A stretch of 64,000 nucleotides of DNA, from NCBI GenBank assembly GCA_033580375.1, contig GCA_033580375.1_4527.1. One strand, written 5' to 3'. Under the pieces are notes generated by a model that had not been told where the DNA came from, did not search any database, and was given only the letters and a program-made list of their open reading frames with translations. This document shows positions 1,562-61,776 of this stretch, in pieces. Source of the stretch: a phage. A program made the position numbers and the translations under genes. Each line of letters starts with the position of its first letter. Position 1 is the stretch's first letter.

Positions 1562-4500
1562 ATGGTTGACATCAAACGTAAGTTCAGGGCCGAAGATGGT
1601 CTTGACGCAGGCGGTGATAAGATAGTTAACGTTGCGCTTGCTGACCGCACAGTTGGCACCGATGGCGTGAACGTTGACTTTTTGGTGCAAGAAAACACCG
1701 TACAGAATTATGACGAGACGCGCGCGTATACAAAAGATTTTATTGTTCTTTATGATAATCGTTTTTATCAAGCTTTAAACGATATTCCAGCTCCGGCAGG
1801 CCCTTTCTCTTTGGCTAAATGGAAGGCAACTCGTACAGATGCAGAATGGATTACAGTTCAAGGCGGAGATTTCCAATTATCAGTAGGTAACTCTATCGCG
1901 GTTGATACTTCAGCTGGCACTGATATTAATTTCACTTTGCCTCAAAATCCTTTAGATGGCGATACAGTTATTTTGTCTGATATTGGTGGTAGAGTAGGCT
2001 ATGTAAAAGTTCAAATTACTGCAGAGGCTCAAAGTATTGTAAACTTTAGAGGACAACAGGTTCGTTCAGTTTTAATGACGCACCCAAAATCTAAAATGGT
2101 CTTCATTTTTAGCAACCGCCTATGGCAAATGTATGTTTCTGATTACGAACGTAATGCAGTCACAGTAACTCCTGCTAAGCCATATCAGGCGCAACCTAAT
2201 GATTTTATCATTCGACGTTTTACATCAGCCGCTCCTATTAATATTACATTGCCTCGTAATGCTAATAATGGCGATATTATTAATTTAGTTGATTTAGACA
2301 AATTAAACCCATTATATCACACAATTGTCAAAACTTACGATGATACAACTTCTATACGAGAAGCTGGTGTTCATGTAGCAGAAGGACGTAATACTGCGGA
2401 AGCATTCTTTGTTTATGATTCTGCTAATAGCTTATGGCGTGTTTGGGAAGGTGACCAGAAATCTCGTTTACGTATAGTTCGTAATGATACTGATTTACGC
2501 CCTAATGAAGAAGTTCTTGTTTTTGGAACTAATAATGATACAATCTCAACGGTAAATCTTACTTTGCCTACAGATATTTTGTCTGGTGATACTGTTAAAA
2601 TATCGTTGAATTATATGCGTAAAGGGCAAACTGTAAAAATTAAAGCTGCTGAAGGCGATACAATTGCTAGCAGTATTTCTTTATTACAGTTCCCAAAACG
2701 TTCGGAGTATCCACCTGATGCACAATGGGTTTCTGTTAGTGAGCTGGAATTTAATGGTGATACTTCGTATGTACCTGTACTTGAGTTAGCTTATATAGAA
2801 GATTATTCATCTGAAACAAAATATTGGGTAGTTCAACAAAACACCGTAACCGTCGAACGAGTCGATGCATCGAGCAATACCACTCGAGCTCGTTTAGGTG
2901 TTATTGCTCTTGCTTCTCAAGCGCAAGCAAATGTCGATTTAGAAAATGCTCCTGGTAAAGAACTGGCTATTACTCCGGAAACATTAGCAAATCGTACAGC
3001 AACTGAAACTCGTCGTGGTATTGCTCGTATTGCAACAACTGCACAAGTTAACCAGAATACCGATTTTGCATTCCAAGACGACTTGATTATTTCTCCTAAG
3101 AAATTGAACGAACGTACAGCAACTGAAACCCGTAGAGGTGTTGCTGAAGTTGCAACTCAGGCTGAAACTAATGCTGGCACAGATGATACCACTATTATTA
3201 CTCCTAAGAAATTGGATGCCCGTCAAGGTTCTGAAGTTTTATCTGGTATTGTAAAATACACATCTACGACTGGTACTACAGCTGCTACTATTCGTGGTAA
3301 TGCTGGGACTAACGTTTATAACAAAGCCGTAGATAATTTAACTATTTCTCCAAAGGCTCTTGACCAGTATAAAGCTACCCCTACTCAACAGGGCGCAGTA
3401 ATTCTTGCTATTGAAAGTGAAGTTATCGCTGGCGAATCACAAGCCGGTTGGGCTAATGCTGTAGTGACCCCTGAAACTCTGCATAAGAAAACTTCTACTG
3501 ATGGACGTATTGGTTTAATTGAAATTGCTACGCAAGCAGAAACTAACACTGGAACTGATTATACTAGAGCAGTAACGCCTAAGACGTTAAATGATAGGAA
3601 AGCTACGGAAGGATTATCCGGCATAGCCGAAATTGCTACGCAAGTTGAATTTGATACTGGAACTGACGATACTCGTATCTCGTCTCCACTGAAAATTAAA
3701 ACTCATTTTGATTCTTCTGACCGTACCAGTGTTAATTCTGATTCCGGACTTATTGAAGAAGGAACCTTGTGGAACCATTATACTCTTGATATTTCTAAAG
3801 CAAATGAAACACAACGTGGTACACTTCGTGTAGCGACCCAAGCAGAATCTAATGCAGGAACTTTAGATGATGTTCTTATTACTCCTAAAAAGCTTTTAGG
3901 GACTAAGTCCACTGAAACGTCTGAAGGCGTGATTAAGGTTGCTACTCAGGCTGAAACTGTAACAGGAACTTCTGCTAATACTGCTGTATCTCCTAAGAAT
4001 TTAAAATGGATTGTCCAGAATGAACCAACATGGGCTGCTACTACTGCAATAAGAGGTTTTGTTAAAACTTCATCTGGTTCAATCACATTCGTTGGTAATG
4101 ATACAGTTGGTTCAACACAACCTTTAGAATCATATGAAAAAAATAGCTATGCTATATCTCCATATGAATTAAACCGTGTACTTGCTAACTATTTGCCATT
4201 GAAAGCTAAAGCCGTAGATAGTAATCTGTTAGATGGTCTAGATTCTCTTCAGTTCATCCGTAGAGACATCGACCAGACGGTTAATGGTTCTTTAAGTCTT
4301 ACTAAACAGACCAACCTGAGTGCTCCTTTAGTATCTACAAGCACTGCTTCTTTTGGGTCCGAAGCATCTGTTACTCGTAGATTAACTCTTAATGACTCTA
4401 GCGGTTCTGAAATAGTTTTCACTAAAGGAACCCAATCTCTTAGTAATAAAGAGAATTTCGTTGTTAGAGCATGGGGTAATAGCGCTACAGATGGTGCCCG

Positions 4501-13817: not shown

Positions 13818-14143
13818 TTAAACCATTCCTTAATACGTTGCCAAATAGATTTTTGTGCTTGTTTATTTACACCAATCGAACGAATAACAGGTTGTGACTG
13901 CTGATATTCTTTATAATCTTCTTTATAGATTTCGTAAGCCGCATCAACAAATGAACTGATCGCTGCCATGTAGTTTTTACGAAGGCCAAATGGCGCATCA
14001 TTATTTTCACGAATAACCGTATATTGGCCTGCTTTAATCTTTACAATTGTCCCTAAATAAGCCCCGTGGTACCAAATATCCCATCCTTCCTGAGTAGGTT
14101 CTGCACATTTACGAAGTTCGTTAATAATATTCAGCTTATTCAT
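13814..14143 (-). CDS. hypothetical protein
   Basis: 109-aa track ORF immediately downstream of motA. Confidence 0.45.
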
Positions 14144-14153
14144 TATGTATTCC

Positions 14154-14786
14154 TCACAGTACGTTAGTTACAAGGGTAATGATTTCTTTGGACACATTAG
14201 GGAAGTCAATGTAAGTATATTTACCACCGATCTTAATCTTAACATCATTTTCAAGAGAAGTAAACAGCTTTGATTCAGTTTCTGACATGTTGTATGCAAA
14301 GATTCTAAGAGCGCCGTCTCGTCGAATTTCAATTTGGCGAATGCCTAGAACTCGTTTTGCAAATCGAACTTCTAAGTTACTACGGTTTTCACCAATTTCT
14401 TTAACTTCAACTTTATCTTTAATATTTTCAAAAACAAAGTTTGCTAATTCATGCATTTCAGGAGTAACTCCACGTGCTTTTCTGGTGTTACGTTTCTGAA
14501 GAAGTTCTGGAGCATTTTCTTGAGCAAATAGGTCTGCAGCTTTTTGGATAATATCCATTGCTTCGCCGGTTGCCACAAGTCCATCACCAGATTTTTCGAC
14601 TAAACCTTTCTTAATCAATACACCAATGTTAGAGTTAACAACTGATGCATTGTATTCTGCTTCCAGAGCTTCACGGACATTGGCAGCAGTGGTGAAGTTG
14701 TTCTTAATGATATAAACCATTATTGCAGCAGTTTTTTCATTCAGAGCGTTTTCAGAAGCTTTGATGATGTAAGTAACTTTAGACAT
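14154..14786 (-). CDS. motA: Middle-transcription activator MotA
   Basis: 210 aa (T4 MotA 211 aa); position between asiA region and gene 52; preceded by early promoter. Confidence 0.8.
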   Translation of the reverse strand: MSKVTYIIKASENALNEKTAAIMVYIIKNNFTTAANVREALEAEYNASVVNSNIGVLIKKGLVEKSGDGLVATGEAMDIIQKAADLFAQENAPELLQKRNTRKARGVTPEMHELANFVFENIKDKVEVKEIGENRSNLEVRFAKRVLGIRQIEIRRDGALRIFAYNMSETESKLFTSLENDVKIKIGGKYTYIDFPNVSKEIITLVTNVL

Positions 14787-14823
14787 TTTATTTCTCCAAA
14801 TTAGTATTTGTTTTGATAGGTCT

Positions 14824-14852
14824 ATAATATCACGTTTGAAGCAAAAGTAAAC
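14824..14852 (-). promoter_or_regulatory. T4 early-type sigma70 promoter (GTTTAC-17 nt-TATTAT on minus strand) upstream of motA
   Basis: Minus strand reads GTTTACttttgcttcaaacgtgaTATTAT about 38 nt upstream of motA ATG. Confidence 0.5.
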
Positions 14853-14889
14853 TTTATTTTGGGCTCTTTTTCAAAAGCCCTGGTAAAAT

Positions 14890-15105
14890 TTACAAACTCA
14901 TTTCTTTAATAAGGCCAATAAGTTTTGCCTTTTTAGAACGAAGCTTTTCTAAATGATATCCGTTTGAACCGCGAACAACTAAAGAATTGATTTCAACTTC
15001 TAAGAAATTTAATTCTTCAACAAGTGCTTTACGGGGAGCATTCATACCAGGTTTAACTTTACCAAAACGAGTAGTTGTGTTTTGGGTTAATTTCATTTTA
15101 GACAT
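14890..15105 (-). CDS. hypothetical protein (52.1-like position)
   Basis: 71-aa ORF with its own copy of the motA promoter/leader module. Confidence 0.4.
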   Translation of the reverse strand: MSKMKLTQNTTTRFGKVKPGMNAPRKALVEELNFLEVEINSLVVRGSNGYHLEKLRSKKAKLIGLIKEMSL

Positions 15106-15144
15106 TTTATTTCTCCAATTTGGTTGTTTTGTTTTGATAGGTCT

Positions 15145-15173
15145 ATAATATCACGTTTGAAGCACATGTAAAC
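15145..15173 (-). promoter_or_regulatory. T4 early-type promoter, near-duplicate of the motA promoter
   Basis: Same GTTTAC-17-TATTAT module and leader (agacattttatttctccaa) as at 14781-14852. Confidence 0.5.
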
Positions 15174-15180
15174 TGTTTTG

Positions 15181-15214
15181 TGAAAAAAATGCACAAAAGG
15201 GAGCCGAAGCTCCC
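15181..15214 (-). terminator. Intrinsic terminator (GGGAGC-UUCG-GCUCCC + U-tract, minus strand) downstream of gene 52
   Basis: Perfect hairpin with UUCG loop on minus strand followed by TTTTGTGCATTTTTTT. Confidence 0.55.
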
Positions 15215-15290
15215 TAATCGCGATTGTCCAACCAATACAGCCAAATCACTAGTGCAGCTATTGCACCGAGAAATCCTAAGGCTAGGGCAC

Positions 15291-16616
15291 TCAAAGTGCC
15301 TCCAAGTCTTTAGTGTACTCTGTCACAACATCAGTAGACTTCCAATACTCGTTTTCTTCTTTCTTAGCTTTAGCTTCTTCTGCTAGTTTACGTGCTTCGT
15401 CGGAAGTGATATGGAAGATGTTAAGACCTACCAGTTTATCGACATGTTCTTTATACATTTCGATTTGTGCTAGCTCTTCAGTCAAAGCTTTACGGGTCTT
15501 GCCTTGAATCACAATTTCGCCACTGATAACTTTTTTGATGAAGTGTGCCTTAGCAAAAGCAAGTTTAAATGCTTTTTCAGATTCAAGGATTTTGTTGTCA
15601 ATACGTTTCTGAACGTAAGTCTTACGGACTTCAACAAAATCTTTGATTAAGTCTACTACATTATCATAGACCGCTAATTTACCCTTTTCATTAATCACTG
15701 TGATGTTTTGTGAACGACGTTCGATGAGACTAAAATCTTTCATGATTTTTTCATGACGTAGCTCTTCATCATCAGGAAGCGAGTACTCTTTACGGAACTT
15801 CACCTTAAACCCAAAGCCGTGTTCACCACAATCGTCTTCCCATGAGATTAGTCCTTTGTCTTCCAACGGGTCAAGAACCTTACTCACATACGTTTCACGG
15901 TCGAATTTATATGGGATTTCAGTTATCTGCATTTGAGTGCGAGATGTGAACTTATATGTTCCGTGAATCTCATAACGCCCATCAACTTCATGTACTTCAC
16001 CACGGAATTCCGGGAATTCAACTTTTGGCTTAGTGACATTTTTACCTTGAAGAGCTTGTAATACTGCCTTTTTGACAGATTTAAAACTATGAGGCAGAAT
16101 ATTTGTTGCGTAACCGGTTGCAATACCGGAGACACCATTCAAAAGAACTGTCGGAATAATAGGAAGATAGAATTTTGGTGGAACGTGTTCTTTATCTTCA
16201 TGAGCTGGAGCATATTCAGTATCTTTATAGACATTATAGAAATTTTTACTTACACGAGCAAAAATATAACGAGATGCTGCAGCTTTTTGGACTGTTCTAG
16301 AACCAAAGTTGCCTTGGCCATCTAACAGTGGATAGTTGTTGTTCCATGTGTTAGCCATCAATGCGCCTGCATCTTGTGCAGAAGATTCACCATGGTGATA
16401 ACCTAAATCTGCAACACCACCCGCAATTGACGCAAGTTTATGAAATTTTTCTTTATTACCACGAGCCAAATCTAATGCACGATGAACCACAAAACGTTGA
16501 ACCGGCTTAAATCCATCAATCATATTTGGGATTGCACGGTTTTCAACGGTGTACATCGCGTATGCTAAGGCTTCGTTATCAATAATACTTTTTAGATTAC
16601 GAGAATTCAATTGCAT
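15291..16616 (-). CDS. 52: DNA topoisomerase II medium subunit gp52 (GyrA-like)
   Basis: 441 aa (T4 gp52 442 aa); position after motA; N-terminal region typical of type II topoisomerase A subunit. Confidence 0.85.
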   Translation of the reverse strand: MQLNSRNLKSIIDNEALAYAMYTVENRAIPNMIDGFKPVQRFVVHRALDLARGNKEKFHKLASIAGGVADLGYHHGESSAQDAGALMANTWNNNYPLLDGQGNFGSRTVQKAAASRYIFARVSKNFYNVYKDTEYAPAHEDKEHVPPKFYLPIIPTVLLNGVSGIATGYATNILPHSFKSVKKAVLQALQGKNVTKPKVEFPEFRGEVHEVDGRYEIHGTYKFTSRTQMQITEIPYKFDRETYVSKVLDPLEDKGLISWEDDCGEHGFGFKVKFRKEYSLPDDEELRHEKIMKDFSLIERRSQNITVINEKGKLAVYDNVVDLIKDFVEVRKTYVQKRIDNKILESEKAFKLAFAKAHFIKKVISGEIVIQGKTRKALTEELAQIEMYKEHVDKLVGLNIFHITSDEARKLAEEAKAKKEENEYWKSTDVVTEYTKDLEAL

Positions 16617-17406: not shown

Positions 17407-17482
17407 GCTAATTTCCTCAATTGATTAATGTTTTTGTAATCCATGAGAGCATTATACTCTGCTCTCAAGAGTTTGTACAATT

Positions 17483-17683
17483 TTATTCGGCTATATCAGA
17501 ACGTTCAAAAAGCTCTTCAACAGTTAAACATTCAGTGTCATCTTCAATAAAGAATCGAGTCCAACACGTTGGGGCGATACAGTTATGAGTTTGTCCGGCG
17601 ATAGAAGCTACACGAATAAGCTGCTGACCATTATTCAGAACAAATTTTTCGCCAATTTCAACATCTTTAAAAAGCTTAGCCAT
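17483..17683 (-). CDS. hypothetical protein
   Basis: 66-aa track ORF with Cys pairs. Confidence 0.35.
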   Translation of the reverse strand: MAKLFKDVEIGEKFVLNNGQQLIRVASIAGQTHNCIAPTCWTRFFIEDDTECLTVEELFERSDIAE

Positions 17684-26615: not shown

Positions 26616-26869
26616 TAAGTTGTACCATTTTCAGTGATTTCACGGAAGATACCATAGATAGGCATTTCATCACCGAGTTTTTCGTAAACGTAAACCACTT
26701 CAGTGTAGCATAAAAATTCAGTCCAGTTTTTCTGTACAACAACTAAATCAGGATTAAATAGAACATCTTCAAACTCATCGATGTTTGAATCAGTAGTTAC
26801 GTTTTTAATGATTTGACGTTTCATAATATTCTCCTCTTGTTTTGATAGGTCTATAGTATCATAGCCCAT
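26597..26869 (-). CDS. hypothetical protein
   Basis: 90-aa track ORF. Confidence 0.4.
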
Positions 26870-26881
26870 AGTTGTTGTACA

Positions 26882-27406
26882 TCATTTTAGCAAAATAAAA
26901 TCAACTTGTTCTGCCAATGAACGTCTGAACATTAATTGACAACTTCCGAGGATGAAATCAGGTGCTTCATAGACCGCGATGTAGTATCCTTTAGCTTTCA
27001 AGAGTTCAACATCTACCTGGTCATCAAACCATGCATAAACCGCGTCAACACTTTCAAATCCAAAATAGAACCCTTGAGCCCAATCTTCACTCAATTCAAA
27101 TGTGTGCTCAATTCTATAGTATCTTAAGATATTTTTTTCAAGGAGTTTATCTTCATTTACTGTAGGACGATTAGGGACATTATAGTTGTCGCCGTGATGG
27201 TAGAAATTACCTGAGAGTATTCCATGTTTATCAAGGAACTCCCATGTTTCTTCAGAGTTGTCGGTGCCCGACCAACCGTATGGCGAACGAGGTTCTTTAT
27301 TCCAAGAGGTTTCCCAAATTCTGACGGCTTTACCGTCTTCAATAGCAATTCCTGGTAATGATTCACGTTGAGTACAAAAACTACGTTCTACGCGGTAAAC
27401 TAACAT
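26882..27406 (-). CDS. hypothetical protein
   Basis: 174-aa track ORF. Confidence 0.45.
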   Translation of the reverse strand: MLVYRVERSFCTQRESLPGIAIEDGKAVRIWETSWNKEPRSPYGWSGTDNSEETWEFLDKHGILSGNFYHHGDNYNVPNRPTVNEDKLLEKNILRYYRIEHTFELSEDWAQGFYFGFESVDAVYAWFDDQVDVELLKAKGYYIAVYEAPDFILGSCQLMFRRSLAEQVDFILLK

Positions 27407-27465
27407 ATTATTCTCCTCTGGTTGATATGGTTATAATATCAAAACCAGAGGAGAAGTAAACAACT

Positions 27466-39379: not shown

Positions 39380-39693
39380 ATTTCCTCGCAAAATGCCCAT
39401 TCAGCGTGATAAACTGTAGCACCTTTAGTATCATTCATTTGAACTACATCTACCGGAGAAATTACTCGATAGAGACGTGGTTCACCTCCATAAGAGCGTG
39501 CTGCTCGTCCTGCATAAATCTTTGCTAAACCGATATCTTCAGTAAAGAATACACGATCCAAGTTTTTCTTACGTCCGGTTTCAGACAGAACTCCTGTTTC
39601 TTCAGGAGGACAAAGCATGTTTTCGATGTTAGCTGAACTACTTGAACCGTGATAAAAAATCTTAAATTCTGCTTTACAATCAATGGTTTTCAT
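39376..39693 (-). CDS. hypothetical protein
   Basis: 105-aa track ORF; ATGA-type overlap with dmd start. Confidence 0.4.
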   Translation of the reverse strand: MKTIDCKAEFKIFYHGSSSSANIENMLCPPEETGVLSETGRKKNLDRVFFTEDIGLAKIYAGRAARSYGGEPRLYRVISPVDVVQMNDTKGATVYHAEWAFCEEI

Positions 39694-39748
39694 TTTGTTC
39701 TCCAGTAGTTGATATGTCTATAATAACACAACTACTGGAGAAGTAAAC

Positions 39749-40123
39749 TTAAAAACGTAATTTAGATATATCTGCGTTGATTTCGTTTTGGTTTGCGTCG
39801 TATGCAATTAAACGAACCGCTTTAGATGGGTCATTCAATGCATAGAAATGATGGAACATTGCTCGAACGATATCACCATTTACGAGTTCTACCTGGATAG
39901 GAGAACCTTTTTCGAGTTGGAAATGTTCATAAGCTTTGATGGTTCGCAGATAATCAAGTTTTTGATTTCCGGCTCCAACGATTTGTACGATACGTTTGCC
40001 CATGTTTTCCATACGAGATACAATAGTTTTAGGAGCAAGAATAACGTAGGTTGCCAGCGGAGAAACTACTTCAACAGTTGTGTTTTCGGTGATTGCAGTA
40101 AAAATTGCTTGAGACATATTCAT
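39749..40123 (-). CDS. hypothetical protein
   Basis: 124-aa track ORF preceded by early promoter. Confidence 0.45.
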   Translation of the reverse strand: MNMSQAIFTAITENTTVEVVSPLATYVILAPKTIVSRMENMGKRIVQIVGAGNQKLDYLRTIKAYEHFQLEKGSPIQVELVNGDIVRAMFHHFYALNDPSKAVRLIAYDANQNEINADISKLRF

Positions 40124-61142: not shown

Positions 61143-61519
61143 TTTACCGCCTTAACAATTTTCAGGTCAACGAATTTTTTCTTACGTTGATTTTTCATAC
61201 GACGGATAGTCTTTTCAGAGATTTCATGTTTCTGATAAGCTTTAGATTCAACACCAAATGCAGCAACGTCAAATTCAGAAAGAATATATTGTACTAGAAT
61301 TTCGCGAATAGAATTACGTCCAATTTTCTGGTCGTGTTTTTGCATGATTTCATAAAGACGGAATTCCCACGCATCAAGAACTTGAGGAGTAACAATATTG
61401 CCGGATTCCAGAAGAGCAACAACTTTATCGAAAGCGAAAGAATTAACTACGTTTTTGATTTTAGTAGACATATTATTTTCCTCGGTTATTTTATTATCCA
61501 ATGAGAGAATTATACTCAT
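61139..61519 (-). CDS. hypothetical protein
   Basis: 126-aa track ORF. Confidence 0.4.
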   Translation of the reverse strand: MSIILSLDNKITEENNMSTKIKNVVNSFAFDKVVALLESGNIVTPQVLDAWEFRLYEIMQKHDQKIGRNSIREILVQYILSEFDVAAFGVESKAYQKHEISEKTIRRMKNQRKKKFVDLKIVKAVK

Positions 61520-61776
61520 CTCTCAAGAGTTTCTATACTATTTTTAAGCATGAAAAGTAAGTAATTTGTATCACGTGGAGTAATATCAACACCCATATCA
61601 AAGATGCCTTTATAGATTGGGTATTTGTTTTCGGTTGTATCGAAGCTGAAACTATTTCCATCACATCTAACAGTAATAGCATCTGTTAAAATGTCATACT
61701 CAATCCTAACAATTGAATCCCCAATTTTAACGTCGAGGTGTTTTTTGAATTTGATAAAATCTAATTCTTCGGCCAC
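61516..61776 (-). CDS. hypothetical protein
   Basis: 86-aa track ORF. Confidence 0.4.
   Translation of the reverse strand: MAEELDFIKFKKHLDVKIGDSIVRIEYDILTDAITVRCDGNSFSFDTTENKYPIYKGIFDMGVDITPRDTNYLLFMLKNSIETLER

Follow-up and report, generated by a model that had tools for sequence, protein, structure and literature searches.

The analysed window (i.e. the whole stretch of 64,000 nucleotides) belongs to a Mosigvirus, an RB69-like relative of T4 within the Straboviridae. At the DNA level, the locus described here shows 95-99% identity with some 155 genomes of Mosigvirus, which forms the RB69 group among T4-like Straboviridae; its closest match is Shigella phage ESh15 (98.4%). All genes of the locus lie on the minus strand, and they succeed one another in the order gene 52, a 26-aa ORF, a hairpin, a promoter-start module (module B), a 71-aa ORF, a second hairpin, a second module (module A) and motA, after which come an arn.4-like and an arn.3-like ORF (Table 1). 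The orthologous position of gene 52 carries the gp52 annotation in ATK48, RB69, T4 and JS98, while the motA product falls in PHROG 1345 (E = 4.8e-90) and its orthologues in related phages are annotated as motA. In the record of phage Bp7, motA is annotated as two CDS (210 + 426 nt; L024 1622-2256), which suggests a frameshift or a sequencing error.

Table 1. Features of the gene 52-motA locus, listed from gene 52 to motA
Feature	Position	Strand	Details
gene 52 (DNA topoisomerase II medium subunit)	15291..16616	-	441-aa ORF; upstream neighbour
26-aa ORF (tiny, hydrophobic)	15214..15294	-	translation (L/M)SALALGFLGAIAALVIWLYWLDNRD, then stop
stem-loop B	15183..15214 (hairpin 15199-15214)	-	GGGAGC-UUCG-GCUCCC, then U-rich UUUUGUGCAUUUUUUU; -19.2 kcal/mol, z = -3.0
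module B, before the 71-aa ORF	15097..15173	-	GTTTAC through ATG TCT AAA; -35 GTTTAC 15173-15168; 17-nt spacer; TGa and -10 TATTAT 15150-15145; predicted start A 15138; SD GGAG 15116-15113; ATG 15105-15103, then TCT AAA
71-aa cargo ORF	14890..15105	-	present or absent among relatives; PHROG 6200 (no assigned function)
stem-loop A	14861..14880	-	GGGCUUUU-GAAA-AAGAGCCC; -12.3 kcal/mol, z = -3.2; part of the putative PeSL A
module A, before motA	14778..14852	-	GTTTAC through ATG TCT AAA; -35 GTTTAC 14852-14847; 17-nt spacer; TGa and -10 TATTAT 14829-14824; predicted start A 14817; SD GGAG 14797-14794; motA ATG 14786-14784, then TCT AAA
motA (activator of middle transcription)	14154..14786	-	210-aa ORF; downstream gene of the locus

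The 26-aa ORF opens with a TTG that overlaps the TGA stop of gene 52 and is preceded by GGAGG; it is the positional analogue of T4 motA.1, which likewise overlaps the gene 52 stop. In G2285 and in Dhakavirus an unrelated 34-aa version takes its place, the mosaic boundary being the terminator hairpin. This hairpin (stem-loop B) follows gene 52 and the tiny ORF, 25 nt upstream of the -35 of module B, and bears a terminator annotation in ATK48, KAW3E185, G2285 and NBG1. We consider it a terminator-like hairpin, with presumed terminator activity, that would also provide the stem-loop part of a PeSL-type cassette (PeSL B; see below). Stem-loop A lies 8 nt upstream of the -35 of module A and is followed by AAAAUAAA, with A residues in place of U; since a U tract is absent, it does not look like a canonical terminator. 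Its pairing is kept in Dhakavirus by compensatory change (G-C in Mosigvirus, A-T in JS98, G.T in VR5). An earlier note on this DNA, made from the sequence, had missed the stem-loops upstream of each promoter; a simple terminator scan listed neither of them, and an Rfam search of positions 14100-15400 gave no RNA family at E up to 1.

For the 71-aa protein, a Pfam search returned no family above the cut-off. The AF2 single-sequence model depicts a disordered basic N-terminus followed by a helical hairpin (pLDDT 79.6), and a BFVD structure search retrieved the Bp7 orthologue only, with no informative neighbour.

Likeness of the two promoter-start modules

The earlier note had pointed to two nearly identical segments in front of motA and its neighbour, and direct alignment bears this out on the minus strand: from GTTTAC to the third codon, 70 of the 77 aligned columns are identical between B and A (15173-15097 versus 14852-14778). 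It was equally right that a GTTTAC-17-TATTAT promoter stands in front of each ORF and that both ORFs begin with MSK. The string it named as leader (gataggtctataatatcacgtttgaagc) is, however, the plus-strand text of the -10 hexamer and spacer, the real leader being agacctATCAAAACAAA...TTGGAGAAATAAA. The likeness is not confined to the promoter hexamers, which would have spoken against the note; spacer, leader, SD and the first three codons are common to both copies. Two mismatches lie at the spacer start (ATG versus TTT), and the leader accounts for the other differences, with three mismatches and a 2-nt indel. The longest exact stretch (36 nt, GCTTCAAACGTGATATTATAGACCTATCAAAACAAA) covers spacer, -10 and the start of the leader, and the second one (22 nt, TTGGAGAAATAAAATGTCTAAA) is the translation initiation region, where GGAG stands 8 nt before ATG in modules A and B alike. 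Each leader is about 30 nt long and unstructured (RNA fold; z = 0.08 for module B).

In a repeat search of the window, the A/B pair was recovered as D1 (55 nt, 91%) together with D3 (37 nt, 84%), the start-to-start spacing of the repeats being 319-321 nt. For a 20-nt core (allowing <=3 mismatches), the window has three occurrences where 100 shuffles give an expectation of 0.00; chance can be excluded as the source of the likeness.

Selection alone could, in principle, also have made the modules similar, by pulling two strong T4-type early promoters to one optimum without duplication or recombination. T4 early promoters do share an extended consensus beyond the hexamers (Hinton 2010, PMC2988021), and a third early promoter of the window (26839-26890, minus strand) has TACTATAGACCTATCAAAAC in common with A and B, so that the -10 and the initial transcribed region belong to a wider promoter-family consensus. 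The identity between A and B, however, includes the non-consensus spacer, the leader and three codons. Ten early-promoter-like sites were found in the window, all on the minus strand; compared two by two without gaps over 71 nt, they are on average 46% identical (sd 8.5), and no other pair reaches the identity of A/B (72% ungapped, 91% gapped). Given that the family background is only 46 ± 8%, the A/B likeness exceeds what the promoter consensus provides, and selection acting by itself appears scarcely credible, the more so in light of the junctions described below.

Some other early promoters of the window, at 39691-39757 and 27404-27461 (both approximate, minus strand) and also at 17431-17487 and 61489-61545, have a 17-nt spacer complementary to their own leader/SD (e.g., ttctccagtagttg...caactactggagaa). 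As the spacer/SD stem-loop spans the -10, masking of the SD would be confined to read-through transcripts; promoters with spacer/SD pairing constitute another PeSL subclass in Arbiol 2010 (PMC2839356). Elsewhere in the window, positions 2966-3979 (plus-strand coordinates) harbour imperfect in-frame direct-repeat families (units of 36-45 nt, spacings of 108-120 and 375), which probably are the repeated motifs of a tail-fibre gene.

Presence, absence and junctions of the cargo unit

A motA-only query (>=95% identity) recovered 154 phage records. The cassette with the 71-aa gene was present in half of these motA-type records (77/154), always at one place per record, and the remaining Mosigvirus records were short of exactly one repeat unit (~320 bp), aligning in two pieces over ~902 bp versus 1221 bp. 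In the alignment of KAW3E185 and G2285, module B runs straight into motA (at the joint between ATGTCTAAA and GTTACT), and the short forms are thus devoid of the 71-aa ORF, stem-loop A and one module. Scanning IMG/VR with MotA retrieved only two loci, both of them short, and the GenBank phage collection served for the comparison in its place. Cassette DNA and 71-aa protein were each also found in 17 records at 60-80% identity, namely those of Dhakavirus and Manna.

The junctions were surveyed in 11 short and 9 long forms, by using as markers the spacer start (AYRTGC in B, TTTTGC in A) and the leader (CAAAACAAAACAACCAAATT in B, CAAAACAAATACTAATTT in A). The single copy of the short forms proved to be a B/A chimera with two types of junction. 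In 10 of the 11 sampled short forms the context, spacer and leader of B are fused to motA, and the B leader places the crossover within the 22-nt patch; two of these ten (F2 and mar009P5) have an A-type spacer start. RB69 combines the B context with the A leader, which places its crossover within the 36-nt patch. The existence of two junction classes means that the copies recombined at least twice, and two is also the number of independent events demonstrated, as 10 of the 11 short forms share one class. Patches have moved between the copies of long forms as well: in EP02SG the A copy bears the B leader, including the 2-nt indel (raising the A/B identity up to 74/77), and in JN02 the B copy has the A-type TTTTGC spacer start. 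Parallel point mutation cannot account for such multi-site patches. Concerted evolution of the 41-nt core as a general process gained no significant support from permutation (p = 0.33 in Mosigvirus, p = 0.10 in Dhakavirus), and the claim is limited to the multi-site patch exchanges.

These observations support the recombination footprint that the earlier note had offered as one of its two explanations, and they run against the convergence of two promoters under selection, for which neither relatives differing by exactly one unit with chimeric junctions, nor multi-site patches with an indel common to both copies, would be anticipated (the indel junctions contradict it already). Given the Sanger-sequenced RB69 and ~77 independent genomes, it is unlikely that the short forms are assembly collapses.

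Short and long forms are intermingled in the neighbour-joining trees of both flanks, although flank recombination spreading one allele could be an alternative source of this pattern. Both forms occur within single ICTV species (mar005p1, with NBG1 long and mar009P5 short; phapec2, with PhAPEC2 long and ChristianSchoenbein short), and the motA of the window (a long form) is 99.8% identical to that of O157 typing phage 3, a short form.

In Dhakavirus (JS98, VR5, C6, Bp7) the order is gene 52, promoter, 71-aa ORF, hairpin, promoter, motA. Compared copy against copy within each genome, the 41-nt promoter core is identical in JS98 and VR5 and shows 1-3 mismatches in Bp7 and C6, while the leaders of the two copies differ and the 71-aa gene begins with MNK. 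The unlike leaders and the MNK start indicate that the Mosigvirus identity, reaching through the SD to MSK, is a copy of the initiation region of motA. In IME08 a further ORF, of 73 aa, lies between the 71-aa gene and motA (L025 ~1520-1920), and the third module that would drive it is an exact repeat of ~70 nt, leader included; no copy of this 73-aa ORF was found in the window or in the other loci compared.

Salmonella phage Manna has a T4-type arrangement of gene 52, motA.1, hairpin, motA promoter and motA, and carries between that promoter and motA a 71-aa ORF and hairpin of the Dhakavirus type (L023 ~1200-1620), with junctions at the SD/ATG and within the promoter spacer. The presence of the cassette on a T4-like backbone indicates that it crossed genus boundaries. 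The cargo gene is absent from T4 and RB69. In the Klebsiella phage Marfa the interval between gene 52 and motA holds three other small ORFs (L027 1994-2511), and in the Serratia phage X20 a 223-aa ORF with an HExxH motif (L028 2120-2791), from which we conclude that the content of this slot varies. Mosigvirus, Dhakavirus, Marfa and X20 all keep the promoter next to motA, down to its spacer, and this conservation in four genera points to copy A as the native promoter of motA and to B as its duplicate.

Neither leader similarity between genera nor the distribution of the forms gives the first event (insertion or deletion) a polarity: the leaders are too short to decide, and the structure is symmetrical, with short forms in T4 and RB69 and long ones in Dhakavirus. 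The comparison with Marfa and X20 goes no further than identifying A as the conserved motA promoter.

Possible shared early expression of the cargo gene and motA

Coordinated immediate-early expression, the other explanation offered by the earlier note, is plausible: the near-consensus T4-type early promoters of the 71-aa gene and motA are the same, as are the 22 nt of their initiation regions. Judging by these signals, transcription of the two genes would begin immediately after infection, at UP/-35/TGn/-10 promoters of equal strength, and translation would start from the same initiation region.

The motA mRNA of T4 is a good RegB substrate, cut in its GGAG SD (Durand 2006, PMC1702504; Uzan and Miller 2010, PMC3014915; Hinton 2010, PMC2988021), and the RegB/S1 consensus is a single-stranded 11-nt GGAGRAYARAA in the initiation region of early mRNAs (PMC1702504; PMC3014915). 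The modules resemble such sites in having GGAG as SD, an A-rich tract after it and an unstructured early-gene leader. The shared GGAGAAAUAAA agrees with GGAGRAYARAA at 9 of 11 positions, the exceptions being positions 7 (Y) and 8 (A), and, unlike in the consensus, its pyrimidine is displaced by one. The regB of RB69 has been reported as divergent. Joint RegB shut-off of both genes, through cleavage at the shared GGAG, is plausible on this basis.

It could be argued that the duplication has been kept because the 71-aa protein must accompany MotA (with the same promoter strength, initiation and RegB shut-off), either working together with MotA or modulating it or the early-to-middle switch. Wherever it occurs in Mosigvirus, Dhakavirus and the T4-like Manna, the cargo gene does indeed directly precede motA, its 22-nt initiation region is identical to that of motA in Mosigvirus, and GGAGAAAUAAA is A-rich like the RegB/S1 consensus GGAGAAUAAAA, the T4 motA mRNA being a good substrate. 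Yet the gene is absent from half of Mosigvirus and from T4, Marfa and X20; MotA, therefore, does not need the 71-aa protein. Moreover, recombination guided by homology predicts a constant position anyway, the match to GGAGRAYARAA fails at two positions, and the two leaders are unlike in Dhakavirus. We regard this selective explanation of the duplication as unlikely.

The spacers of both modules (14837-14846 and 15158-15167, minus strand) hold the MotA-box core TGCTTCA, in copy A within TTTTGCTTCA. In Mosigvirus as in Dhakavirus, both copies keep the core, as TGCTT(C/T)A; the Marfa motA promoter has it too, and it was found in none of the other early promoters of the window. X20 has TGCATTA, and T4 is without the core. 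In functional middle promoters the MotA box, (a/t)(a/t)(a/t)TGCTTtA, lies 12 ± 1 bp upstream of the -10 (Hinton 2010, PMC2988021). A reading of A and B as MotA-dependent middle promoters was rejected, the box being only 7 bp from the -10; boxes at the canonical spacing of 11-13 bp occur elsewhere in the window.

The spacer might instead serve as an operator, through which MotA would act as a repressor of the early promoter of its own gene and, likewise, of the duplicate. The sequence TTTTGCTTCA of copy A fits the 10-nt MotA-box consensus, and the retention of the core in both copies and in Marfa (together with its confinement to these promoters in the window) speaks for this possibility. Against it stand the distance of 7 bp rather than 12 ± 1 bp from the -10, the TGCATTA of X20 and the missing core of T4, the weak binding of DNA by MotA alone (Hinton 2010, PMC2988021), and the 34 box-like sites present in the window, many of them within genes. 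Repression of this kind seems to us quite improbable, and we would give little credence to its extended form, in which the spacer conserved in four genera is a MotA feedback operator and the duplication puts the cargo under the same feedback and RegB shut-off. If the operator did exist, the duplication of the promoter would go beyond a scar of recombination, in that it would connect cargo genes to the early-to-middle switch.

Probable tandem PeSL-type cassettes at the motA locus, and known systems

We favour (with a probability of roughly 0.8) the interpretation that modules A and B, together with their stem-loops, are tandem PeSL-type cassettes bracketing an accessory ORF, and that recombination between them removes or inserts one unit. 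Each cassette would begin with a stem-loop and continue through a strong sigma70 early promoter and a leader to an SD and a start codon. The small accessory ORF would be an insert separating gene 52 from motA in a Mosigvirus, with copy B, presumably a duplicate of A placed behind the gene 52 terminator, driving the 71-aa gene; the cargo would be expressed early and motA would keep its own promoter. The ~75-nt direct repeats, 320 bp apart, would then be a substrate for the very active homologous recombination machinery of the phage. By a crossover between A and B, exactly one unit would be lost, presumably in the form of a mini-circle that carries the cargo ORF, stem-loop A and a single module, and insertion would proceed by the reverse reaction or by recombination with a donor genome, while non-reciprocal exchange would copy patches from one module to the other. 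A single crossover between the putative circle and an RB69-like short form would generate the exact marker pattern of the long form, and the reverse crossover, at either of the identical patches, would generate the two short classes observed.

Viewed in this manner, the locus illustrates cleanly, with natural isolates, the way in which T4-like phages can acquire small accessory genes, or shed them, with their essential neighbours undisturbed: the cargo would move together with a duplicate of the promoter and start signals already in place, and the repeats would become sites of precise excision or insertion. The 50:50 polymorphism of the sequenced Mosigviruses, the two junction classes and the transfer across genera make it a convenient system for measuring rates of PeSL recombination, and the natural isogenic pairs allow the role of the 71-aa early protein to be addressed.

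In the PeSL model, recombination deletes an ORF as a mini-circle or inserts it, and leaves a relative with one chimeric PeSL, as exemplified by ORFan192 of RB49 versus phi1 (Arbiol 2010, PMC2839356; Comeau 2014, PMC4122927). The gene 52-motA locus of Mosigvirus and Dhakavirus is not mentioned in these two studies, and motA, RB69 and JS98 were not found in the text of Comeau 2014. The architecture nonetheless agrees with theirs, at the level of sequence, in every component. The T4/PST consensus TTTACW-N17-TAYWAT is matched by B (TTTACA-N17-TATTAT) and by A (TTTACT-N17-TATTAT), both with TG at -15/-14; a stable stem-loop lies just upstream of each promoter; the composites contain the AT-rich stretch and end, at their 3' side, with the SD and the start codon of the downstream gene; and tandem copies surround a small variable ORF (carried by 77 of 154 records), with a single chimeric copy left after its loss. 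Unlike the published PeSLs, one copy here is the conserved promoter of an essential regulator and not that of an ORFan, and the homology extends three codons into coding sequence. The population-scale 50:50 polymorphism and the two junction classes documented at this locus likewise go beyond the published cases.

The locus also shares with general direct-repeat deletion, or unequal crossing-over, in phages the precise loss of one unit with the junction inside the homology. It differs from it in that the repeats are predicted to be functional regulatory cassettes, owing to which both recombination products would stay viable and expressed. With T4 early promoters, that of T4 motA among them (Hinton 2010, PMC2988021, and Uzan et al. 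1990, cited there), it has in common a UP-like AT-rich region, the GTTTAC -35, TGn and the -10; with the motA promoter it also shares the immediate-early class and the location directly upstream of motA, following the terminator of gene 52/motA.1. The upstream context TTTTCACAAAAC(A/G)GTTTAC occurs both in T4 and at this locus, where that of module B (TTTTCACAAAACAGTTTAC) matches the context of the T4 motA promoter. T4, however, has a single copy, with another spacer and leader, whereas at this locus a second copy is predicted to serve a further gene. The locus is best seen as an ordinary, if clear and well-documented, new case of the known PeSL shuffling, which leaves the current understanding unchanged.
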